64,000 bases of DNA from the NCBI GenBank assembly GCA_021604525.1, contig BQJD01000002.1, positions 24,282 to 88,281 of the forward strand, read 5' to 3'. The stretch comes from a marine bacterium B5-7. Its GTDB lineage: Bacteria; Pseudomonadota; Gammaproteobacteria; Arenicellales; CAJQKF01. A program made the position numbers and the translations under genes. The notes under the pieces are model-generated. The model searched no databases and was not told the DNA's origin. It worked only from the letters and a program-made list of their open reading frames with translations. Positions 948 to 24,481 of this stretch are shown here, piece after piece; position 1 is the stretch's first letter, and every line of letters starts with the position of its first letter.

Positions 948-2879
948 ATGAATTCACAAAATACAGGATTTCCAGTCAACCTGAAACGCAGCGCTCTTCT
1001 GATTCTCTTGCTCTGTCATTCGGCGACCAGCCAGGCCGAGATTAAGAAAATTCACCTGCCTATCTCGCTTGACAATACCTATTTACAACAAGCTGTACTC
1101 GCCCAAGCTTATACCGAGCCGGACAATAGCGCACGTGTCTGGGACGATGGTAGTGGCTGCAACTTTATGGTGCTGAGGAACCCTGCCTTCGATACCCTCG
1201 ATGGTCGTCTGCGACTGGTCACTGACGGTCAGGTGAGAGTTGGCAAACGATTCGGTGATAGCTGCCTGGTTGCCGTTGACTGGTCGGGAATCATGGAAAC
1301 CTACCAGGAGGTGAGCGTTGACGCGGCCACTTCGACACTGAAGTTTACAGTCATTGATTCGACATTAAGTGACGAGGGCGGTCTGACGGGTACGGTCTGG
1401 GACCTCGCCAAACAATACATGCATCCACGACTCAGTGCCGTGAAAATTGAACTCGGTCATGCCTTTACCGAACTCGGTGAAGTAATCGGTCACGTATTTC
1501 CAGAAGAGCCGGAACGGGTTGCGGCAATTCTTGATACCTTAACCATAGAGTCGGCGCGGGTGGTGGATAACGGGATTGAAGTGCAATTGGCATTCGCTGT
1601 CGATACCACCACGGCAGACACCAACGATATCACTACGCCACAGCCTGCCCTGACAGAAGAGGAAATGAAGCGCTATCAGGAATCGACGCAAAATTTTGAT
1701 AGCTTTCTAACCAACATCATCAAATACATGGCTTTTACCATCAGCGATCCCGCGATTCGACGTGATTTGCTGTATGTGCTTATCGAGGCCCGATATGACA
1801 TCCTGAGAGTCCTGAATGAGCCTTCCAGAACAGGGCTGGTGGATCCGGTGCGTGCACTTTTTGTAAGAACCTGGGCACGACTGTCGCCCATCCTCAGGGA
1901 ACTCGGTCCGGAAGAATCCGGACTGCGCGGTTTTGAATTACTGAGCTTTATAGCCGCAGCCGATGCACTGCACGCACTTGATTCACTCGGTCCTGAACTC
2001 AATCTCGAAATCTCGGCTAATGGCCTGCGTCGGATGGCTCGAATTCTGAACCCCGAAGCAACCGACGATCCGCTGAAATTCGACGAGGCAGTCGATTCCG
2101 ATCTTCGCGATATGTTTGAATTTTCCGCACCACGTCCTCCTGAATCCAACACCAACGAGAGCAATCCCGGTAACGACACGAACGAGAGTCGATACGAGCC
2201 TTCACCGCCATACGCACCGGACGTCGCATCGATACCCCAACGGTTATCGCGGCTCACATTCATTCCTGCCTATGCGGCCAACCCGATTGATAAGTCCATT
2301 TTGAAGCGACTTAACAGTTGGATACCCAAAGACGACGAATTCGAGGAGTACCTGCCGTTGGTACGCGACGTACTTTACCAGGCGGCCGAACAGACATTGG
2401 ATGATTCGAAACTTGAACCCTCCAGGCAAAGAATGTTCGAAACACTGGTACTTGCCACGGCCTGGCAGGAAACCTGCTGGCGTCAGTACACAGTCGTTCA
2501 GCGTCGGCTGGTGCCCATCAAATCTACAGGTGGCGCGCTTGGGATCATGCAGATCCTGCCTTCTGTCTGGCGCGGATTCTACGATCCCAACGGCCTTGCA
2601 TGGGATATCAGTTACAACGCTGCCGCTGGTAGCGAGATCTTGCTGCATTATCTTAAGGACTACGCCATTGCCCGCGGCGAACACGAGGAAAAGGGCGGCG
2701 AAGACAATCTACCGATGGCGACTTACGCAGCTTATAACGGCGGACCCGGGCAACTTGACCGCTATCGCCTCAAGGACACACCCAAGAGCCTGCACAAGAT
2801 TGATGCATCATTCCTTAAAAAATACAGGGCCATTGCCAAAGGCAACGATCTGGCGGTACTTACCTGTTTTACTGGTTGA
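948..2879 (+). CDS. Secreted lytic transglycosylase (C-terminal SLT domain) with a long N-terminal region of unknown function
   Basis: 643-aa ORF with an N-terminal signal peptide (LLILLLCHSATSQA/E). C-terminal SLT motifs: ATAWQETCWRQY, GALGIMQILPSVW, YNAAAGSEILLHYL, AYNGGPG. Confidence 0.8.
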   Translation: MNSQNTGFPVNLKRSALLILLLCHSATSQAEIKKIHLPISLDNTYLQQAVLAQAYTEPDNSARVWDDGSGCNFMVLRNPAFDTLDGRLRLVTDGQVRVGKRFGDSCLVAVDWSGIMETYQEVSVDAATSTLKFTVIDSTLSDEGGLTGTVWDLAKQYMHPRLSAVKIELGHAFTELGEVIGHVFPEEPERVAAILDTLTIESARVVDNGIEVQLAFAVDTTTADTNDITTPQPALTEEEMKRYQESTQNFDSFLTNIIKYMAFTISDPAIRRDLLYVLIEARYDILRVLNEPSRTGLVDPVRALFVRTWARLSPILRELGPEESGLRGFELLSFIAAADALHALDSLGPELNLEISANGLRRMARILNPEATDDPLKFDEAVDSDLRDMFEFSAPRPPESNTNESNPGNDTNESRYEPSPPYAPDVASIPQRLSRLTFIPAYAANPIDKSILKRLNSWIPKDDEFEEYLPLVRDVLYQAAEQTLDDSKLEPSRQRMFETLVLATAWQETCWRQYTVVQRRLVPIKSTGGALGIMQILPSVWRGFYDPNGLAWDISYNAAAGSEILLHYLKDYAIARGEHEEKGGEDNLPMATYAAYNGGPGQLDRYRLKDTPKSLHKIDASFLKKYRAIAKGNDLAVLTCFTG

Positions 2880-2977: not shown

Positions 2978-3026
2978 GCTGGAGCGGGTGATGGGAATCG
3001 AACCCACGTTAAGAGCTTGGGAAGCT
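2978..3026 (-). repeat. 49-bp perfect copy of the 3' part of tRNA-Gly (CCA end to anticodon loop); putative att-type direct repeat, distal copy
   Basis: gctggagcgggtgatgggaatcgaacccacgttaagagcttgggaagct is identical at 2978-3026 and 6294-6342. The sequence diverges immediately on both sides. Confidence 0.9.
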
Positions 3027-3665
3027 GCATCATCTGCCTATTCATATGTTGATCATATTCAAGGATTCGCCGCTTCAGCTAGCCGGATCAGGGAATCATC
3101 GTGCCAGGTAGAGTAAAGGTGCTAGTGGATGCGGTAGATTCACAGTTCCTGATCCGCCATACCCCACATACAGTGTCACACATTTATCTGTAGTGAGTTA
3201 ATAACAATAACGAATTGCGGTAGGGCGGCTAATACATGGGGGCATTACAGTATCGACAATACCACCTTACGTGAGCTTGACTTTGCCATTCTCTCATCTG
3301 GATTTCTCGTCTTGTCTGGACTTTACAGGCCCATCAAGAGGAGAAATCATCTTCCGATTATTTTCAATTCCGTGATCGGTAAGATCTCTGTTTTTCGCAC
3401 CGCCATAGGTAGTGTTTTAGCTGTTTGAATTAGTCAAATTCCTCTTCGACTATTGTCTCATGTCCAGCTTTTGCAGAGGTTCCTTAAATGACGAAATCGA
3501 TATCTCACGGGAATTTTCAGTATAATTCCTCCTTTTCCTGGTTTAAACCACAAATTCCCGCGAACTGATTCAGCCTGAGTCGGGAAAACGCTGGGATAAC
3601 TTGAATCGACCAAATCAATCATGCATTTGTATGTGCTTTGATGGATTTTACCAGCGGATCGGAGA

Positions 3666-5660
3666 TTGGAGATGAAAATACTGGCGCGACTTCGACGTTC
3701 AATATTTTTATTTATGGCTTTACTGCCACTGTTCTCCGTGGCCAATGCACAAGTGATAGACGCCGCATTGCAACTCAATGGCGCCACCTATTTCTTTATT
3801 GGCAATGTTTACTTCAGATTGCATGGAAGCCAAGTGGATAAAAACTATCCGTTGGCATTACCCGGAGGCTGGAAGGACCTGCCAAAAAGCTTTCACTCCG
3901 GCATCGATGCGGCGTTTTACCATCCAAAGAAAAAACGATCCTATTTCTTCAAGGGCAATCAATATGTCCGGCTGAATGGAACCAGGGTGGAACCGGGTTA
4001 TCCCAAACCCATCACCCAATGGAAGGGCCTGCCGGATGATTATCGTCAGGGTATCGAGGCAGCGGTGTACCGGGGGGGATACACCTATTTCTTTCGTTCC
4101 GGCAGTTATGTCCGTATCCGAAACACCACGGTGGATTCAGATTATCCGAAGTTGCTTCCCGGCGGATGGAAACTGCGAAAGATCAACTATTCAGGGCTGA
4201 CCGCCATGTTCAATGATCGGGCCAGGAACAAGAATTATATGTTCTTCAAAGATACGTACTGGCAATTGAATGATATCAAGTTGGATGGAGATTTCCGTAA
4301 TATGGCCAACTGGAAGGGTCTGATTGGGGAGGATGAACTCAGGGTCTATGTACAGGTGAATCAAGTTCCGCAATCCATTTGGGAGAACAAGCCCATTATT
4401 GCATCCTGTCACTACTATATTAAAACCCGGGGTGGATCAACAAACAACAAGGACTTCAGAATACCCATTTTTCTGGAGGCCAACTGGATTTACGACGAAT
4501 ATCAAGACGGACTGGAGAATAAAAACAATACCGGAGGTGGATCCGGTGAGCCAAATCCAAGAAAATTCATCGATATTCCCTTACTACATGGCCGATCGTC
4601 TTATCAGGATGTGCAGGGCAAACTGGTTTCAACATTGGCACCCAGCCTACCCGGCTCCTATAAGTACAGATGCCGTATCGGCAGCACGCAGATCAAGCAA
4701 TCGAACAAGAAAGACGATGTTCACGAGACCACGGTTTCGGTAAAGGGAGAGTGGCCAATTAAAAAAGAGGAAATACCGACACCTCTAATCATGTATCCCT
4801 ATCAACCTGCAATGGACATTGATGACACAACGGAAGTCATAGAGATGACCGGTCTGATTGCACCGGATAAAGTGGCCTTATGGGAATTCGCCGCCCAACG
4901 CACCGTGGTTTTCGATGAACGTTGGAATTTCCAGCTACTCAAAAAATCCGGAAGTCAGTACATCCCGGTTTCCACTTATTCCGGCAGTTTTACAAAATCC
5001 CAGATTCTCGATCGGGACTGGTCGTTCAAATCTGCGATTCCCAAAGCACAAGTGGCAATGCTCAGCGCAGGTCAATACAAACTGGAAAGCTGGCTCAGTC
5101 AGGCAGACACGCCAGAGGGGGAAATTTCCGGCCCAAAAACCAGTTTCGAATTCAGAATCAATCGCAAGTTCAAACTATCACCCAACATAACGGCGTTGGA
5201 TGAGTCCGGCGTAAGGCCCATACAGTCGGGCATGGTGTTACTTAATGTACTGGGCAAACCCGACCTGACCGTTCTGAATAAAGTGCACGCAGTGGGAAAG
5301 GACCATAAACCAAACGATATAATTCAATTTACCGATAATGATGCGGTCAATTGGGACAATGGTAGATGTGCCTTACCGATTCAGTTCTTTATCAACAACC
5401 GGGGTTCTACAGATGTTCAAGAGACTTTCAAGACTCGGATATTTATTTCCAACAACAATCGTTCTGTCAGGCAGGTCGGCGGCATCGGGGCAGGAAACAA
5501 CAAGACGATCGAGTCGAAAATCTGGCTCACTCCAGGTGTTGTCACTGAATTCAGCATCGAAGTGGATATCGACAATTCAGTCCAGGAATCATCGGAAAGA
5601 AACAACCAGGCGCACTTTAAAGGGATGGTATCCGGCGATTGCAGCGATCGGGTGCAATAG
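3666..5660 (+). CDS. Secreted hemopexin-like repeat protein (4 blades) with an uncharacterised beta-rich middle region and a C-terminal CARDB-like domain
   Basis: 664-aa ORF with signal peptide MEMKILARLRRSIFLFMALLPLFSVANA/Q. Four ~48-aa repeats (aa ~31-224) fit the hemopexin pattern IDAA..(x)YFF.G..Y.R......(D/G)YP..I/L..W.GLP. The C-terminus reads PDLTV...FFINNRGSTDV...IEVDIDNSVQESSERNN, which is CARDB-like. Confidence 0.7.
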   Translation: MEMKILARLRRSIFLFMALLPLFSVANAQVIDAALQLNGATYFFIGNVYFRLHGSQVDKNYPLALPGGWKDLPKSFHSGIDAAFYHPKKKRSYFFKGNQYVRLNGTRVEPGYPKPITQWKGLPDDYRQGIEAAVYRGGYTYFFRSGSYVRIRNTTVDSDYPKLLPGGWKLRKINYSGLTAMFNDRARNKNYMFFKDTYWQLNDIKLDGDFRNMANWKGLIGEDELRVYVQVNQVPQSIWENKPIIASCHYYIKTRGGSTNNKDFRIPIFLEANWIYDEYQDGLENKNNTGGGSGEPNPRKFIDIPLLHGRSSYQDVQGKLVSTLAPSLPGSYKYRCRIGSTQIKQSNKKDDVHETTVSVKGEWPIKKEEIPTPLIMYPYQPAMDIDDTTEVIEMTGLIAPDKVALWEFAAQRTVVFDERWNFQLLKKSGSQYIPVSTYSGSFTKSQILDRDWSFKSAIPKAQVAMLSAGQYKLESWLSQADTPEGEISGPKTSFEFRINRKFKLSPNITALDESGVRPIQSGMVLLNVLGKPDLTVLNKVHAVGKDHKPNDIIQFTDNDAVNWDNGRCALPIQFFINNRGSTDVQETFKTRIFISNNNRSVRQVGGIGAGNNKTIESKIWLTPGVVTEFSIEVDIDNSVQESSERNNQAHFKGMVSGDCSDRVQ

Positions 5661-5846
5661 GGAACACTGAGCGTCATCAACAACACCAATGTATTTGTAC
5701 AGAATGCTCAGTACGATAATCTATCCCTTAAGCCGGATCTGAAACTGAATTTCACCGAGCCCATGTCCGGCTATATCGAGATTCAGAACATCGGTGAAAG
5801 CCGATTGCCAAAACGGCGGAAATCTCCATCCAATGCTGGCATTTAA
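5661..5846 (+). pseudogene. In-frame continuation after the TAG stop of the hemopexin/CARDB gene; it encodes the start of a second CARDB-like module (likely a truncated remnant)
   Basis: Hand translation directly after TAG (5658-5660), same frame: GTLSVINNTNVFVQNAQYDNLSLKPDLKLNFTEPMSGYIEIQNIGESRLPKRRKSPSNAGI*, with stop TAA at 5844-5846. PDLKL...GYIEIQNIGES mirrors the start of the upstream CARDB-like domain (PDLTV...). Confidence 0.45.
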
Positions 5847-6293
5847 AACCTACAGGCGCTCAAGGATCATATAATGGTGGAATTCGTTGCATGACACTTT
5901 TGGCACCGCCCCTGGCCTTAAATGAAGTGTGACCTTATTGCTGCAGTAACCGGACTTAACCAGGGCGAGTATTGGTAGGGCAGACCTAAATTGCCGACTG
6001 CGGAAATCAGGTCAAGTCAAGGGTAGGAAGCGAATGGGTTGGAAGGCGGATTTGATAACCCATCAACAAGATAGACGTTTAACACTCGGGGTAAGCAATA
6101 ATCGCGGGCGGCCACTGACATGAGTTTTTTTTCGTGAGCCAGCATCCAGATTCCATGGCCTAAAAATGTGCGTCACTTAAACTGTCGAAGTGCTGTTATC
6201 AGACGCTGGCGAACCCATCGAATTGCATCGTGATTCGAGCATCCATGTAAAAAACGAGCGAACTATCTACATCGCTAAAAGCTATCTTGTTTA

Positions 6294-6342
6294 GCTGGAG
6301 CGGGTGATGGGAATCGAACCCACGTTAAGAGCTTGGGAAGCT
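6294..6342 (-). repeat. 49-bp direct repeat, proximal copy (inside the intact tRNA-Gly plus 2 bp beyond its CCA end)
   Basis: Identical to 2978-3026. Confidence 0.9.
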
Positions 6343-6369
6343 CCCGTTCTACCATTGAACTACACCCGC
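6296..6369 (-). tRNA. tRNA-Gly (anticodon CCC), CCA encoded
   Basis: The reverse complement folds as a cloverleaf. Acceptor GCGGGTG/CACCCGC, D arm GTTC-AATGGTA-GAAC, anticodon arm GGAGC-TTCCCAA-GCTCT, variable TAAC, T arm GTGGG-TTCGATT-CCCAT, discriminator T, CCA. Length 74 nt. Confidence 0.9.
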
Positions 6370-6376
6370 CGTTAAT

Positions 6377-6568
6377 TCAGCCCGTAGAGCAGCTCATGTC
6401 TTGCCCGCAGCATTGGGGCGATTTGATCATGCCGTGACCATTGGGGCACTTCGATACCTGTACGTCATTACCTTCGACGTCAATGCTACCGTTCTCAAGT
6501 GGGGCATCGCATTTTCCGCATGTCGCGTTCACACTCATCCCACATTTTTCACATTCATACGTAGCCAT
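6377..6568 (-). CDS. Small cysteine-rich (zinc-ribbon-like) protein, function unknown
   Basis: 63 aa starting from the second ATG, which is preceded by AAGGAG 7 nt upstream: MATYECEKCGMSVNATCGKCDAPLENGS...KCPNGHGMIKSPQCCGQDMSC. It has two CxxC pairs plus C/H/CC/C. It lies between gltD and tRNA-Gly on the same strand. Confidence 0.55.
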   Translation of the reverse strand: MATYECEKCGMSVNATCGKCDAPLENGSIDVEGNDVQVSKCPNGHGMIKSPQCCGQDMSCSTG

Positions 6569-6668: not shown

Positions 6669-8108
6669 TTACCTCGGTAATTCCGAGTGCCCCATCAGGT
6701 ATTCATCGACGGCACGAGCGGCCTGGCGGCCTTCGCGTATCGCCCATACCACCAATGACTGGCCGCGACGCATATCGCCTGCAACAAAGACGTTATCGAT
6801 ACTGGTACGATAGTTCTCCTCGTTGGCATTGACGTTGCCACGACCATCAAGTTCGACTCCGAGATCGACCAGCAGGCCTTCATGAACGGGATGCACGAAA
6901 CCCATTGCCAGCAAAATCATGTCTGCCTTGATGACGAATTCGCTGCCCTCGATCTCCTGCATTTGCCATGCACCCTTGTCATTTTTAACCCACTCAAGAC
7001 GAATGAGCTGGAGTCCGGTTACACGGCCATTGTCACCGACTACCGACTTGGTTGCCACGGACCAATCTCGATTACAACCCTCATCGTGGGAAGTTGATGT
7101 TCGCAATTTGAGCGGCCAGTTCGGCCAGGTTAACAGTTTATTCTCGCGTTCTGGCGGCTTGGGCATAATCTCAAGCTGGGTCACGCTTGCTGCTCCTTGC
7201 CGATTGGACGTGCCAACACAGTCGGCACCGGTATCGCCACCACCGATTACAACTACGTGCTTATCAGTCGCCAGAATGTCCTTGCCGATATATCCTTCAC
7301 CACTGACCCGCCGGTTTTGCTGGGTCAAAAAGTCCATGGCGAAAAAGGTGCCTTCAAAATCGCGGCCAGGAACTTCGAGGTCACGGGGTTTTTCTGAACC
7401 ACCGGTCAGCACAATGGCATCGTAACCATTAAGCAGTTTTTCAACCTCCACATTTTTTCCAACGTGAGAGTTGGGACGAAAGCGAACGCCTTCCGCCTGC
7501 ATTTGCGCAATACGCCTGTCGACGTGCTCGGCGGACATTTTGAAATCCGGTATACCATAGCGAAGCAGTCCGCCCATTCGACGATTCTTTTCAAACACCA
7601 CCGTGCGATGACCAGCCCGGGCAAGCTGCTGGGCGCAGGCGAGACCCGCCGGACCTGAGCCGATTACGGCAACACGCTTCCCGGTTTTGTGACGCGGAAC
7701 CCGAGGCAAAACCCAGCCTTCCTGCCAACCTCGATCGATAATGGCGCACTCTATGGTTTTAATGGTAACCGGCTCGTCATCAAGATTCAGGGTGCAGGAT
7801 GCCTCGCACGGCGCCGGACAGATCCGTCCGGTAAATTCCGGAAAGTTGTTGGTGGAATGCAGAACATCAAGTGCCTCGCGCCAACGATCGTGGTAGACCA
7901 GATCGTTCCACTCGGGAATGATGTTATTGACCGGACAACCTTCGTGACAATAAGGAATACCGCAACTCATGCATCGCGCCGCCTGATCGCGGGTGTCCCG
8001 CTCTGTCAACGGGATGACGAATTCCTTGAAATCGGTGAGACGCTGCTGAATCGGTAAATAGCTTCGATCGCGACGGCGTATTTCCATAAAACCGGTATCT
8101 TTACCCAT
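6669..8108 (-). CDS. gltD: Glutamate synthase (NADPH) small subunit
   Basis: Starts at [15 protein letters not shown] (internal Met of the 495-aa ORF). Motifs: CMSCGIPYC...[14 protein letters not shown], and dinucleotide fold [14 protein letters not shown]. Sits directly downstream of gltB. Confidence 0.9.
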
Positions 8109-8189
8109 GATGCATGTATCCGAAAAACGTGGGCGCGCACAAAGTCCGCCAGCCATGATTGAACAGTGAATTCAGCTTCGCCATAACCA

Positions 8190-11100
8190 TCAAGCGCCTA
8201 CTGCCAGATCAACGTCGGCGTGCTTGTCGTGGCGATCCTGCATCCGCTCCAACGCCTTGCGGTATTCCACCGGCATCACTTTGACGAAACGTAAACGGTA
8301 ATGATCCCAATCGGCGAGGATCTCGGCAGCCCGTGCGCTGCCAGTATATTGTCGGTGTCGTTCGATTAATGTTTTCAAACGATTCTGATCATTGCCGCTC
8401 ATGTCCGTCATGATATCGACCAAACCATGAGACTCGAGGTCACCGCCCTGGTGCGCTTCGCGCTCCAGTGCAATATCTTCATCGGCAATTGGCTCGAGTT
8501 CCACCATCGCCATGTTACATCGCATCTCGAAGTGACCATCCGTATCGAGCACATAAGCGATACCGCCACTCATACCCGCAGCGAAGTTGCGCCCGGTTTG
8601 ACCGAGTACCACCACACAGCCGCCCGTCATATATTCGCAGCCATGATCGCCAACACCTTCAACCACTGCGCTGGCGCCTGAGTTGCGTACACAAAACCGC
8701 TCCCCTGCAACCCCGGCAAAGTACACTTCACCGGAGATGGCGCCATACATCACGGTGTTACCGACAATAATGTTCTCATCAGCCTTGAGTCGGCTATCAG
8801 CAGATGGATAGACAATGATTCGTCCGCCTGAGAGTCCTTTACCCGTATAGTCGTTGGCTTCGCCCGCTAATTCGAGGGTGATACCACGAGCCAGAAATGC
8901 ACCGAAACTCTGACCACCGTTACCGCGGGCCCTGATGATTATGGTGTCGTCCTTGAGGCCGGCATGACCGTAACGTCGAGCGACTTCACCGGATAACATG
9001 GCACCTACGGTACGATTGGTATTGGCTACCTCGACTTCAATTCGCACCGGCTCCTGGGTCTCAAGCGCCCTTTGAGCCTGTTCGATCAATTGATGATCCA
9101 GCGCCTTGTCGAGACCATGATCCTGCAAATCAGTGTTGTAGATAGATACATCATCTGTCGCATCGGGAACGGTGAATACCCCGGTAAAGTCGAGTCCACT
9201 GGCCTTGAAATGTTCGACTGCCTGGCGAACATTCAACCGATCGGCATGTCCGATCATCTCGTTGAATGTTCGGTAGCCGAGTTTTGCCATCCATTCACGG
9301 GTTTCCTCGGCAATAAACATGAAGAAATTAACGACATCTTCAGGTTTGCCGACAAAGCGCTTGCGCAATTTCGGATCCTGCGTTGCGACACCCACCGGGC
9401 AGGTATTCAAATGACACTTGCGCATCATGATGCAACCGGAACTGATGAGTGCAATGGTGCCGAAACCGACTTCGTCAGCACCAAGCAATGCGGCAATGGC
9501 AACATCACGTCCGGTTCGCATACCACCATCAGCCTGCACCGCTATGCGTCCGCGCAGGTTGTTCATCACCAGGGTCTGATGGGTCTCGGCAAGCCCGATC
9601 TCCCATTCTGATCCAGCATGCATAGTGGAGGTCAACGGACTCGCGCCGGTGCCCCCTTCAGAGCCCGAGATCAGCACATGATCAGCGTGCGCCTTGGAGA
9701 CTCCCGCTGCGATGGTGCCCACACCCACCTCGGACACCAGTTTGACGCTGATACGCGCTCGGGGATTCACGTTCTTAAGATCGTGAATCAACTGCGCGAG
9801 ATCCTCGATGGAGTAGATATCATGATGCGGTGGTGGTGAGATCAGTCCGACGCCGGGGGTTGAGTGACGCACCCGGGCAATCCATTCATTGACCTTGTGA
9901 CCAGGAAGCTGACCGCCTTCCCCAGGCTTGGCACCCTGTGCCATTTTGATCTGGATATCGTCGGCATTAACGAGGTATTCGGCATGTACGCCAAAACGTC
10001 CGGAGGCGATTTGCTTGACTCGCGAACGCATGGAGTCACCGTTAGGAAGCGGTTTGTACCGCTCAGCTTCTTCACCACCCTCACCCGTATTGGAGCGTCC
10101 ACCGATCCGATTCATGGCAATTGCCAGGTTGGTGTGCGCCTCCCAGGAAATCGAACCGAATGACATGGCGCCTGTCGCGAATCGCTTGACGATCTCGCTG
10201 GCCGGTTCAACCTCGTCAAGCGGTACCGGATCACGGTCGAAATTAAACTCGAACAAACCGCGCAGGTTTTTAACATGGTTGCCGGGATTGTCCATGATTG
10301 ACGAGTATTCCTTGAATCTCGCGTAATCACCTGAACGCACCGCATGCTGAAGCTTTGAGACCGTCTTCGGCGTCCACACATGATCTTCGCCGCGCAACCT
10401 GAACGCCAGTTCACCACCCACATCGAGAGCATCCACAAGGGTTGGATCGTTGCCGAAGGCCAGATTGTGACGACGCACGGTTTCCTCGGCGATATACTCA
10501 ATTCCGATTCCTTCCACCGCGGTAGCCGTTCCCGTGAAGTAGGTGGCGACGAACTCCGATGACAAACCCACCGCATCGAAGATTTGCGCTCCGCAGTATG
10601 ATTGATAGGTGGAGATACCCATCTTCGACATCACCTTCATCATGCCTTTACTGATGGCTTTCAGATAGCGTGTATGAGCATCTTCCAGTGACACCGATAC
10701 ATCGAGATTCGGCAGCAGTTGCGAGATGCTGTCGAGAGCGAGATAGGGGTTGATCGCTTCAGCGCCGAATCCGGCAAGCAGACAGAAGTCGTGCACCTGA
10801 CGTGCTTCGCCAGTCTCCACCACCAGGCCGACATCGGTGCGCAGCCCCTCACGAATAAGGTAGTGATGCACAGCGCCTGTGGCAAGCAGTGACGGGATGG
10901 CGATGTTGTCCATATCAACAGCGCGATCGGACAGAATCAGAATATTGAATCCACGTTCTTCAACCAGTCGTTTGGTCTTGAGACACAAACTTTCGATCGC
11001 TGCCGCCATTCCATCGGCACCCGCACTTGCAGGGTAGACAAGCTCCATAGTGTAGGTACGGAATGTGCTCTGCTCGAAGTCTTCGATGCGGCGGATTTTT

Positions 11101-12839
11101 TCCAGCTCAACACTCGATAATATCGGCTGACGAACCTCCAGGCGCTTATTCTTGCCTCCACTGGTGAGATCAAGCAGATTGGGACGTGGACCGATAAGCG
11201 ATACCAGCGACATCACCAGTTCTTCACGAATCGGGTCGATGGGCGGATTGGTTACCTGGGCAAAGTTCTGTTTGAAATAGTCAAACAGCATCTTCGGCCG
11301 ATGCGACAGCACCGCAGGCGGAATATCACGGCCCATGGACCCCACCGGATCCTGTCCGCTGATTGCCATCGGCTTCAAGAAAAATTCGAGATCCTCGCGA
11401 CTGTAGCCGAAGGCTTGCTGACGATCCAGCAGGGTCGCTGGATCAGGCACCATCGCCGGAACTTCCGCCGGCACGTCCTCGAGCTTGATCTGGGTCTCGT
11501 CGAGCCAGCGCTGGTAAGGTTTGGCGGTAGCGAGTTCTTCCTTGATTTCCTCGTCGTCGATGATGCGACCCTGCTCGAGATCGATGAGAAACATCCGCCC
11601 CGGCTGCAATCGCCATTTCTTGACGATCTTCTCTTCGGGAATATCGAGTACACCCATCTCCGAGGCCATTACCACCGTGTCATCACTGGTGATGAGATAG
11701 CGCGCCGGCCGCAGGCCGTTGCGGTCGAGCGTTGCGCCAATCTGGCGGCCGTCGGAAAATGCTACGGCTGCCGGACCATCCCACGGCTCCATCAACGCCG
11801 CGTGGTATTCATAAAATGCCCGACGCTTGTCGTCCATCAACGGGTTGTCGAGCCATGCTTCGGGAATCATCAACATGACCGCATGGGCCAGCGAATAACC
11901 ACCGGCTACCAGCAACTCAAGGGAGTTGTCAAAGGTGGCGGAATCGGAATTGCCGTCGCCGATCAATGGCCAGAGTTTTTCGAGATCATCACCAAGCAGT
12001 TCCGAGCGCATGTTATGTCGCCTGGCCAACATCCAGTTGATGTTGCCGCGCACGGTATTTATCTCACCGTTGTGGCACAGGTACCGAAAAGGTTGCGCCA
12101 ATTCCCAGCTTGGAAATGTGTTGGTGGAAAATCGTTGATGAACAAGGGCCAGCGCTGATTCAACCCGCTCATCGTTGAGGTCAAGGTAATAGTTGGGCAG
12201 GTTGGCAGCCAGTACCATACCTTTGTACAGCAGGGTGCGCGCCGACATCGACGCCACATAGAATTGTTCGTGGCCTTCCGGTGCCAAACGGTGAATCCGA
12301 AAATGCGCCTGTTTGCGAATAACAAACAGCTTGCGTTCAAATGCGTCGGTGTCTGCGCAATTGTCGCCCCGCGCGATAACAAACTGACGAATCACCGGCT
12401 CCATGGGCTTGACACTGAAACCCAGGCAGCTATTGTCTGTGGGCACATCCCGCCAGCCGATGACCCGCTGACCTTCTTCAGCCGCCATCTGCTCAAGTGC
12501 GAATTCACATTCCTTGCGAGTTGATGAAATACGCGGCATGAATACCATGCCCACGGCATAATCGCCGTAGGCTGGCAGATCCAGTCCAAGCGCCTGACAC
12601 TCTTCGCGTATCAGTCGATCAGGCATCTGGATAAGAATGCCTGCGCCATCGCCGGCCAGCGAATCCGCACCCACCGCGCCGCGGTGAGTGAGATTGGCGA
12701 GAATGGTCAAACCGTCACGAACGATTTTGTGACTCTTGCGATTCTTGATGTCGGCAACAAACCCAACACCACAGGAGTCGTGCTCGTTGCGCGGATCATA
12801 CAGGCCGAATGCGGCCTGTCGTTTAACACCTGTAACCAT
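8190..12839 (-). CDS. gltB: Glutamate synthase (NADPH) large subunit
   Basis: 1549 aa. The amidotransferase N-terminus has a propeptide and catalytic Cys ([12 protein letters not shown]). FMN/central domains and the C-terminal GXGXG-rich domain are recognisable. Paired with gltD. Confidence 0.95.
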
Positions 12840-23374: not shown

Positions 23375-24481
23375 TCATATGTCGAGATCGTTAGTCCGAT
23401 TGGCAAGTTCCTCATGCCGGGCGATAGCCAGTTCCACCAGTCTATCAATAAGTTCAGCATAGGAGATGCCCGCTTCCTGCCACAGTTTTGGATACATGCT
23501 GATCGGCGTGAATCCGGGAATCGTGTTGATCTCGTTGATGATGATTCGCACTGATGCCTGCTGTGGCTTAATCAGGAAATCGACCCGCGAAAGCCCGGCC
23601 GCCTCCACCGCATAAAATGCACGCAATGCAACCTGGCGAATTGCATCGGCAAGATCGTCATCAATATTTGCGGGAATCACCAACTGCGATTTGTCGTCGA
23701 TATATTTAGTTTCATAGTTGTAGAACTCAGCACCGGGTATGATTTCGCCCAGTGGCGAAGCTTCGGCCGAATCGTTGCCCAGGACCGCGCACTCAATCTC
23801 AAGTGCGTTTTCAACCGATTGTTCCACCATCACCTTGTAATCAAATCCCAGAGCGAAGTCGATGGCATCTGCCAATGCATCGGGATTGTGTGCTTTGCTA
23901 ATGCCGACACTGGAGCCGAGATTGCATGGCTTGACGAACATCGGGAAGTCGAGTGCAGACACACACCGTTCGATTTCACCTGAGCGGTTACCACGCCAAC
24001 TGGCGCCACGTATCGATAGCCAGGCAGTCTGCTCGAGACCTTCCGCTGCAAATGCCCGGCGCATCATCTCCTTGTCCATCGAAACCGCCGAACCGACCAC
24101 ACCGGAACCAACATAGGCAATACCTGCAAGGTCAAGCAGGCCTTGTATCGTGCCGTCTTCACCATTAGGTCCATGGAGGACAGGAAAGACGACATCAACC
24201 CTGAGATCCAGCGTGGCATCGGTGGGCGACTTGAGATGGCCGTCGCCACAATAGTCGAGATAAACCGGCGCACCGTCGCTTTCAACGACCTGCCGCTCGG
24301 CAAGTACACGATCGAGATCTTCGGGAAGCACCCAGCGACCGGACCGGGTAATTCCAACCAGGGTCAAGTCGTAGCGATCGTCATCAATTGCAGCTAACAT
24401 CGAGCGCGCCGAGGTTACAGAAACTTCGTGTTCGCAGGACTGCCCGCCAAACAACAGAACGAGACTCAATTTATTCGACAT
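23375..24481 (-). CDS. ddl: D-alanine--D-alanine ligase (long, DdlA-type)
   Basis: 368 aa. Motifs VLLFGGQSCEHEVSVTSA, FPVLHGPNGEDGTIQGLL, ATP-grasp FVKP...GSSVGISK, and the C-terminal INEINTIPGFT. Confidence 0.9.
   Translation of the reverse strand: MSNKLSLVLLFGGQSCEHEVSVTSARSMLAAIDDDRYDLTLVGITRSGRWVLPEDLDRVLAERQVVESDGAPVYLDYCGDGHLKSPTDATLDLRVDVVFPVLHGPNGEDGTIQGLLDLAGIAYVGSGVVGSAVSMDKEMMRRAFAAEGLEQTAWLSIRGASWRGNRSGEIERCVSALDFPMFVKPCNLGSSVGISKAHNPDALADAIDFALGFDYKVMVEQSVENALEIECAVLGNDSAEASPLGEIIPGAEFYNYETKYIDDKSQLVIPANIDDDLADAIRQVALRAFYAVEAAGLSRVDFLIKPQQASVRIIINEINTIPGFTPISMYPKLWQEAGISYAELIDRLVELAIARHEELANRTNDLDI

Follow-up and report, generated by a model that had tools for sequence, protein, structure and literature searches.

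We analyzed a window of 64,000 nucleotides (nt), which is the whole stretch of DNA under study (positions 24,282 to 88,281 of contig BQJD01000002.1, assembly GCA_021604525.1). The 242-kb contig belongs to the metagenome-assembled genome (MAG) of "marine bacterium B5-7", an unclassified gammaproteobacterium. Literature on this bacterium or its sample was not found. The window contains the gene of GJL80631.1, a protein of 662 amino acids (aa) labelled "hypothetical protein" in GenBank. The gene is located in a small islet next to a tRNA-Gly(CCC) gene. Its product consists of a leader, a hemopexin-like beta-propeller, two modules here named M1 and M2, and a CARDB domain (Table 1). The open reading frame (ORF) called by the program at 3666-5660 on the plus strand is real. 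It could start at TTG 3666, which gives a numbering of 664 aa, or at ATG 3672. The ATG is the better start because a GGAG is located 7 nt upstream and GenBank annotates the 662-aa product, and the shorter numbering is used throughout. Identical DNA, apart from one single nucleotide polymorphism at 3514, is present in Logan run DRR328264 as a unitig of 3,327 nt. A second Logan run carries a variant of the protein with a difference of 1 aa.

Table 1. Features of the islet and of the GJL80631.1 gene. Coordinates are those of the window.
Feature	Position	Strand	Description
Distal direct repeat, attR-like	2978-3026	-	49-nt copy of tRNA-Gly(CCC) positions 28-74 plus 2 nt
Islet non-coding leader	3027-3671		sigma-70-like site TCGATA-18-TATAAT at 3497-3526 (+)
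GJL80631.1 gene, predicted exported modular protein	3672-5660	+	662 aa; stop TAG 5658-5660
Predicted Sec-type signal peptide	3672-3749	+	residues 1-26; cleavage after VANA
Four-bladed hemopexin-like beta-propeller	3753-4337	+	residues 28-222
Module M1, predicted beta-sandwich	4335-4745	+	residues 222-358; invariant Cys pair C246/C334; remotely CARDB-like
Module M2, predicted beta-sandwich plus one helix	4746-5189	+	residues 359-506; no known family
CARDB domain	5256-5648	+	residues 529-659; subfamily with conserved Cys pair C566/C657
Post-stop in-frame remnant	5661-5810	+	like the start of the relatives' CARDB2 (LKPDLKLNFTEPMSGYIEIQNIGESRLP)
Rest of islet	5811-6293		no coding remnant, no terminator; one inverted-repeat arm 5817-5833
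Proximal direct repeat, attL-like	6294-6342	-	47 nt of the tRNA 3' end plus 2 nt downstream
Intact tRNA-Gly(CCC)	6296-6369	-	ARAGORN; Rfam 71.2 bits

The propeller is the best defined part of the protein. A preliminary description of this DNA had proposed a four-bladed hemopexin-like domain at residues 31-224 of the 664-aa numbering. These are the same four repeats. The proposal was to fail if a profile match and a predicted propeller fold were missing, and it stands, since both were found. The blades start at residues 29, 78, 128 and 176, the repeats have a length of 48-50 aa, and the blade-start motifs are IDAA, IDAA, IEAA and LTAM, in this order. In each of the six pairings of blades, the alignment is better than in all of 300 shuffles. 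In the profile scan, Hemopexin and CARDB were both detected above their cut-offs, as had been expected. The Pfam Hemopexin profile (PF00045) scores 111.9 bits (cut-off 21.3) with an expect value (E) of 1.3e-32, and 3 stretches pass singly. An NCBIfam scan of the 662-aa protein gave no match. In a sequence search of the PDB, the propeller matched matrix metalloproteinase (MMP) 14 at E 3.6e-22, and also the hemopexin domains of MMP-2 and MMP-13 and vitronectin. The AlphaFold2 model of the whole protein reaches a predicted local distance difference test (pLDDT) above 90 over residues 28-220 and 530-655, and the first of these regions is modelled as the four-bladed propeller. Foldseek places it on MMP-14 (3c7x) with E 3.5e-14, a template modelling score (TM) of 0.82 and a root mean square deviation (rmsd) of 2.0 Å over 197 columns.

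The domains of MMP-14, MMP-2, MMP-13 and vitronectin are built alike, with four tandem blades of ~48 aa and a DAA blade-start motif. MMP-14, MMP-2 and vitronectin (6o5e chain B) match the window propeller with TM 0.77-0.82, rmsd 2.0-2.5 Å and 23-29% identity. In the MMPs and vitronectin, too, the propeller is a non-catalytic recognition module in a larger secreted protein. The window protein differs from the MMPs in several points. It has no Peptidase_M10 domain (the Pfam scan gave no peptidase), its propeller is N-terminal and straight after the signal peptide, and its host is bacterial. In animal hemopexin-like domains a disulfide joins blade 1 to blade 4. This disulfide is absent here because residues 28-222 contain no cysteine, and the closest bacterial relatives are also without it.

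Export of the protein, already suggested in the preliminary description, agrees with what can be read directly from the sequence, without a predictor. The leader (MKILARLRRSIFLFMALLPLFSVANA, followed by QV) has n, h and c regions and an A-x-A site and is without lipobox. Equivalent leaders are present on the homologues P0133 and P0136. The two Cys pairs are located inside M1 and inside CARDB and are both conserved, as expected for domains outside the cytoplasm. GJL80631.1 is predicted to be exported by a Sec-type route.

Bacterial hemopexin-repeat proteins had been regarded as rare, with only a few described examples. This is true for the literature, where PpxA and PpxB, the photopexins of Photorhabdus, continue to be named as the first hemopexins from bacteria (PMC2266911), but the argument from rarity fails because such proteins are common in the databases and already annotated. 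One search gave 271 matches, and the best 120 of these 271 came nearly all from bacterial genomes or metagenomes, the few exceptions being insect matrix metalloproteinases. NCBI already lists many of the matches as "hemopexin repeat-containing protein", in genera including Arenicella, Serinicoccus, Accumulibacter, Mariniphaga, Cecembia, Lutibacter and Paracoccus, and also on Streptomyces plasmids. Like the window protein, the bacterial relatives are exported and carry PF00045 repeats. The nearest N-terminal propellers (P0094-P0097, P0104, P0107, P0133 and P0136) are 40-53% identical and also directly follow a leader. The photopexins are likened to them here by their description (PMC2266911) and not by sequence.

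The bacterial relatives differ from the window protein in that most have 7-11 repeats or carry S8 or M12 peptidase, Amidase_2 or PAN domains as partners; BTRD1 was also found as a partner. These partner domains fit a substrate-targeting role for the propeller. With the protein itself excluded, the query coverage among the matches listed was 18-37%, which corresponds to the propeller only. The combination of hemopexin, M1, M2 and CARDB was found in this organism only, and no other protein of the same architecture was detected in searches of 5.8 billion clusters. What is new is a singleton domain architecture, in a class of bacterial hemopexin proteins which is itself already annotated and unstudied.

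The ~330 residues which follow the propeller could not be assigned in the preliminary description. An exhaustive HMMER search with residues 222-662 gave ~7 distant environmental relatives of residues 229-506. P0133 has the layout leader, four hemopexin repeats, M1-M2, and P0134 and P0135 have the layout leader, M1-M2, PAN_4. More divergent relatives of M1-M2 are P0158, P0159, P0164 and P0167. An extra profile search with M1-M2 yielded just four short proteins, each with M1 only. Because these four carry the first half alone, the region can be divided into two separable modules. Two motifs are conserved in M2, VFEERWN..LLK and G.YRL..WLSQ..TP.G. When the M1+M2 region was modelled separately in AlphaFold2 with 11 sequences, two beta-sandwiches were obtained with pLDDT 83 and a predicted TM of 0.71. 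In Foldseek, M1-M2 matched generic tandem immunoglobulin (Ig)-like pairs only, at TM 0.2-0.33 (NCX1 CBD12, RbmA and the C-terminal barrels of transglutaminase). The alignment of M1 to the CARDB profile by hhalign is weak (E 0.0025) and covers the C-terminal motif only. When the M1+M2 profile was compared with the PDB sequences, the sole matches had E 0.0081 and 0.3, and both were in the M1 part. Assignment of M2 to a known family was rejected after no match in Pfam or NCBIfam, an hhalign E of 0.7 against CARDB and generic Ig-like pairs in Foldseek. According to the models, the formerly unassigned region consists of two beta-sandwich modules, which belong to a small family without characterised members.

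The C-terminal CARDB module, also part of the earlier proposal, was recovered by profile and by fold. Pfam CARDB (PF07705) scores 37.4 bits (cut-off 22.7, E 3.2e-9) over residues 570-649, and the region matches the CARDB domain of PF1109 (3idu) in Foldseek with TM 0.73-0.78. The closest relatives of this domain are P0136, P0142, P0145 and P0151, followed by P0200-P0203. In the cassette which they share, CARDB1 with its Cys pair is followed by CARDB2, and a poly-proline linker then leads to a CxxCH cytochrome c domain. This cytochrome ends in YLCNCN and is nearest in likeness to cytochrome c5 and ScyA. The window domain corresponds to CARDB1 of this cassette with 28-34% identity and E values of 1e-14 to 1e-20, and in the alignment its C566 and C657 fall on the Cys of the conserved GKC...G.C pattern. 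In P0136, four hemopexin repeats precede the two CARDB domains and the cytochrome c. The P0136 gene (L004 1125-3127) ends 172 nt from a tRNA-Met gene; a direct repeat of this tRNA was not found within 5 kb. P0151 and P0200-P0203 have an extra N-terminal region of ~175 aa, which by eye resembles a carbohydrate-binding beta-sandwich and has no Pfam family over it.

Elsewhere, the modules of the window protein are split between adjacent genes. Three loci have, 24 nt behind the cassette gene, one to three genes with the layout leader-M1-M2-PAN_4. Loci L089 and L092 share neighbouring genes, and the context of L093 differs. In phmmer comparisons with the window protein, the proteins of the gene pair gave E 1e-27 to 1e-31 for M1-M2 (~31-33% identity) and E 1e-15 to 1e-18 for CARDB1. 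The window protein therefore fuses in one chain what is encoded by neighbouring genes in these loci. Fusion together with adjacency is evidence of the fusion type that the modules work together. In L089 (3897-9362), the genes form a tandem array like an operon, in which one CARDB-CARDB-cytochrome c gene precedes three M1-M2-PAN_4 paralogues at gaps of 13-25 nt. A gene for a pyrroloquinoline quinone-type dehydrogenase (GSDH) is located two genes downstream in L089 and L092 and not in L093, which is a hint only. The locus of P0133 (L003 200-8407) looks accessory, with SelO split into three ORFs, a HipA/helix-turn-helix toxin-antitoxin pair and an IS110-family transposase at its flank.

Compared with the cassette proteins, which have CARDB2 and cytochrome c, the window gene keeps only the start of CARDB2, and this behind its stop codon. 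In tblastn the alignment of P0136 continues in frame across the TAG at 5658-5660 to ~5810. When only the 61 codons past the stop are used, they still match P0136 in collinear position, with E 0.006 among 199 proteins, and a profile of four cassette proteins matches this tail at the CARDB2 start with E 5e-4. A CARDB1-type domain profile gave no match to it. The same TAG is present in two further assemblies, and a transcription terminator was not detected after it. The window protein itself is without CARDB2 and cytochrome, and no collinear CxxCH or other cytochrome remnant was found after the stop. A CxxCH on the minus strand past 5810 was considered as a cytochrome remnant and rejected, as it is not collinear. 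A perfect 17-nt inverted repeat has one arm at 4281-4297, in the coding region of blade 4, and the other in the rest of the islet. The latter begins 7 nt past the last recognisable post-stop codon. The two arms match with E 0.002 in blastn-short on the whole window, with no extension, and the repeat may be the scar of a rearrangement at the truncation point. The retained 662 codons encode complete, confidently folded domains. From these sequence comparisons, the gene is likely to be 3'-truncated. A premature TAG would have cut off its CARDB2-cytochrome c end, and the sequence downstream would have been lost or have decayed.

The preliminary description had called the islet tRNA-flanked. One side is indeed formed by an intact tRNA-Gly(CCC) and a 49-nt repeat, but the other side is a 3' tRNA fragment and no gene, because the repeat copies only positions 28-74 of the tRNA. 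Neither ARAGORN nor Rfam detects a complete tRNA at 2978-3026. The two repeats are identical in 49 of 49 positions, the window has no third copy, and none of 100 shuffles produced a match. The islet unit between them has a length of 3,316 bp, ~1.1 kb of it non-coding. Its guanine plus cytosine (GC) content of 0.463 is the lowest of all 3.27-kb segments of the window (mean 0.523, standard deviation 0.019). GJL80631.1 is the sole cargo, as had been stated, since no other ORF of the islet has detectable homologues. This holds for an integrase or excisionase as well, which was not found among the ORFs of at least 60 aa. A Pfam scan of 3027-3671 in six frames and of 5661-6293 in four frames (without +1 and +2) gave no family. 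The promoter-like site in the leader matches 10 of 12 positions, but shuffled sequence contains sites of this kind at least as often. An origin of the islet from a phage or plasmid was considered and rejected after no phage match and no relative on viral contigs were found; the plasmid matches were Streptomyces hemopexin proteins only.

A tRNA 3' repeat without integrase is the signature of integration at the 3' end of a tRNA with later loss of the recombination module. From the direct repeat and the low GC, the gene would have come in on an element that integrated site-specifically at the 3' end of tRNA-Gly(CCC), by an integrase which is gone since. Derivatives of this kind, tRNA-integrated and without integrase, are known as CIME-like (cis-mobilizable) elements. 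The islet resembles them with its tRNA at one end, the 3' repeat at the other, its atypical GC and its single cargo gene. It differs from tRNA islands by the absence of integrase and excisionase and by its size of only 3.3 kb.

Left of the islet, 948-2879 (+) encodes a protein of 643 aa, which starts with a leader and matches SLT (lytic transglycosylase) faintly at its C-terminus. A pattern scan gave no relatives of it in GTDB genomes or JGI metagenomes. The tRNA is adjoined on its right by an ORF at 6380-6568 (-) for GJL80632.1, a Cys-rich, zinc-ribbon-like protein of 63 aa. This ORF contains an imperfect 28-nt tandem repeat (6399-6454), and relatives at least 90% identical occur in other metagenomes in unrelated contexts (DctPQ, DUF1015). 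Further to the right are the glutamate synthase genes gltD and gltB (6669-12839, -). GltD is at most 69% identical to that of any GTDB species representative, and these relatives have no tRNA nearby. Because of this low identity, the lineage can be regarded as being without a close sequenced relative in GTDB.

What is observed directly comprises the anatomy of the domains and their folds, the network of modules, the repeats at the two ends of the islet and its low GC. The gene product would be a Sec-exported, non-enzymatic binding protein of several modules, in which the propeller would act as ligand-binding head and the three sandwiches (M1, M2 and CARDB) as a stalk. In the intact relatives, this stalk may tether the small cytochrome near the ligand of the head. 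The window copy would have kept ligand binding at most, probably to a surface glycan or surface protein of a particle or cell, and would be without the redox role of the intact relatives. Elsewhere the same modules are arranged as a gene pair, an optional N-terminal domain with CARDB1-CARDB2-cytochrome c5-like followed by M1-M2-PAN, or as the fusions hemopexin-CARDB1-CARDB2-cytochrome c and hemopexin-M1-M2. Taken as a whole, this account of an exported binding protein that is truncated, domain-shuffled and brought in by tRNA integration seems to us reasonably probable. It adds to the observations a binding function, a ligand class, a history of truncation and a mode of acquisition, each to be read conditionally. 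For the intact relatives, and for these only, Cbp2D of Cellvibrio japonicus offers a functional analogy, with no sequence relationship shown. It is a secreted protein with a carbohydrate-binding module (CBM) and a c-type cytochrome, and can reduce lytic polysaccharide monooxygenases (PMC8981238). Both consist of a head, spacers and a small c-type cytochrome with one haem. Cbp2D uses other domains for binding and as spacers, and the window copy has no cytochrome.

Several points weigh against this account. A binding role is the most likely one for the window protein, but it is argued by analogy only. The M2 model was built on only eight sequences. The post-stop similarity is short (28-47 residues) and of moderate significance only, and beyond 5810 up to the tRNA no coding remnant is recognisable. 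A decayed CARDB2-cytochrome in frame +2 past 5810, suggested by a resemblance seen by eye, is unsupported by the profile of four relatives and was rejected. As no remnant of an integrase was detected in the islet, integrase-mediated entry is deduced from the repeat alone. An empty attachment site was not found, because the collections hold no close relative; the closest GTDB genome has only 69% GltD identity and no synteny.

The gene might instead be a dead remnant, inactivated by the 3' loss and drifting to deletion in a decaying islet, with no present function. The premature stop with homologous sequence behind it would fit such a remnant, as would the missing terminator, the lost integrase with ~1.1 kb of non-coding islet, the 17-nt inverted-repeat scar where the homology ends, and an architecture unmatched in the cluster searches. 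However, 1,986 nt have stayed open without frameshift, while the ~480 nt downstream are unrecognisable. All four retained domains are complete with confident predicted folds, the stop is placed just past a domain boundary, the Shine-Dalgarno sequence and ATG are intact, and the alleles seen differ by 1 aa only. We consider a dead gene unlikely, yet serious enough to be kept in mind. The islet, in turn, could be no product of integration at all. A circular or unlinked 3.3-kb element may have been joined at the shared 49-mer during assembly, or the 3' half of the tRNA may have been duplicated locally. The 3,327-nt Logan unitig is indeed separate and begins and ends in the repeat, the contig of the left flank also stops there, and the Logan graph fits an integrated islet and an empty site plus circle equally. 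On the other hand, the MAG contig runs through both junctions and the GC minimum is exactly over the insert. The repeat covers the tRNA from the anticodon stem to the 3' end, reportedly the classic block of identity for tyrosine integrases that target tRNA genes. An artefact or a local duplication is accordingly judged improbable.

A hemophore-like role, in which haem or iron compounds would be caught by the propeller and then taken up, is suggested by the name of the family and was proposed for the photopexins PpxA and PpxB (PMC2266911). The window protein is also predicted to be exported, and its relatives are fused to a haem protein domain. Hemopexin, whose structure 1qjs is among the PDB sequence and Foldseek matches, binds haem between two propellers via two His residues. 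The window protein has one propeller, and none of its three His residues (51, 75 and 84) is conserved in the 11 closest relatives, so haem binding, which the preliminary description had considered, is unlikely in the manner of hemopexin. Moreover, the best structural matches are the MMP and vitronectin propellers, which bind no haem, the islet is without TonB receptor or haem-uptake gene, and the cytochrome of the relatives holds its haem covalently via CxxCH, independent of the propeller. Scavenging of haem is a very remote prospect. A more far-reaching reading is that the modules belong to an undescribed extracytoplasmic system, in which a binding head (the hemopexin propeller, PAN or, by eye only, a CBM-like domain), the M1-M2 pair and a cytochrome c5-like domain tethered by two CARDB domains, encoded as the conserved gene pair or as fusions, would transfer electrons where a polymer or particle is bound, much as Cbp2D does with lytic polysaccharide monooxygenases. 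The window gene would then be a fused, horizontally transferred version minus the cytochrome. We regard such a system as speculative and doubtful at present.

The GJL80631.1 gene is no evidence for a rarity of bacterial hemopexin propellers, which are widespread and annotated. It adds a unique architecture to this class, and its analysis assigns ~330 unexplained residues to two new modules of the beta-sandwich type, M1 and M2. Both fusions and a conserved gene pair tie M1-M2 to a CARDB-tethered c-type cytochrome and to unstudied PAN proteins. The 3.3-kb islet without integrase is a clean small example of the single cargo genes left by integrative elements. The window gene itself has probably been decapitated, on a tRNA islet that has decayed. 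The most interesting by-product of its analysis is that hemopexin or PAN, M1-M2 and CARDB-cytochrome c modules form a network which recurs. If a system of binding plus redox function were true, it would provide a testable entry into what bacterial hemopexin and PAN domains recognise.

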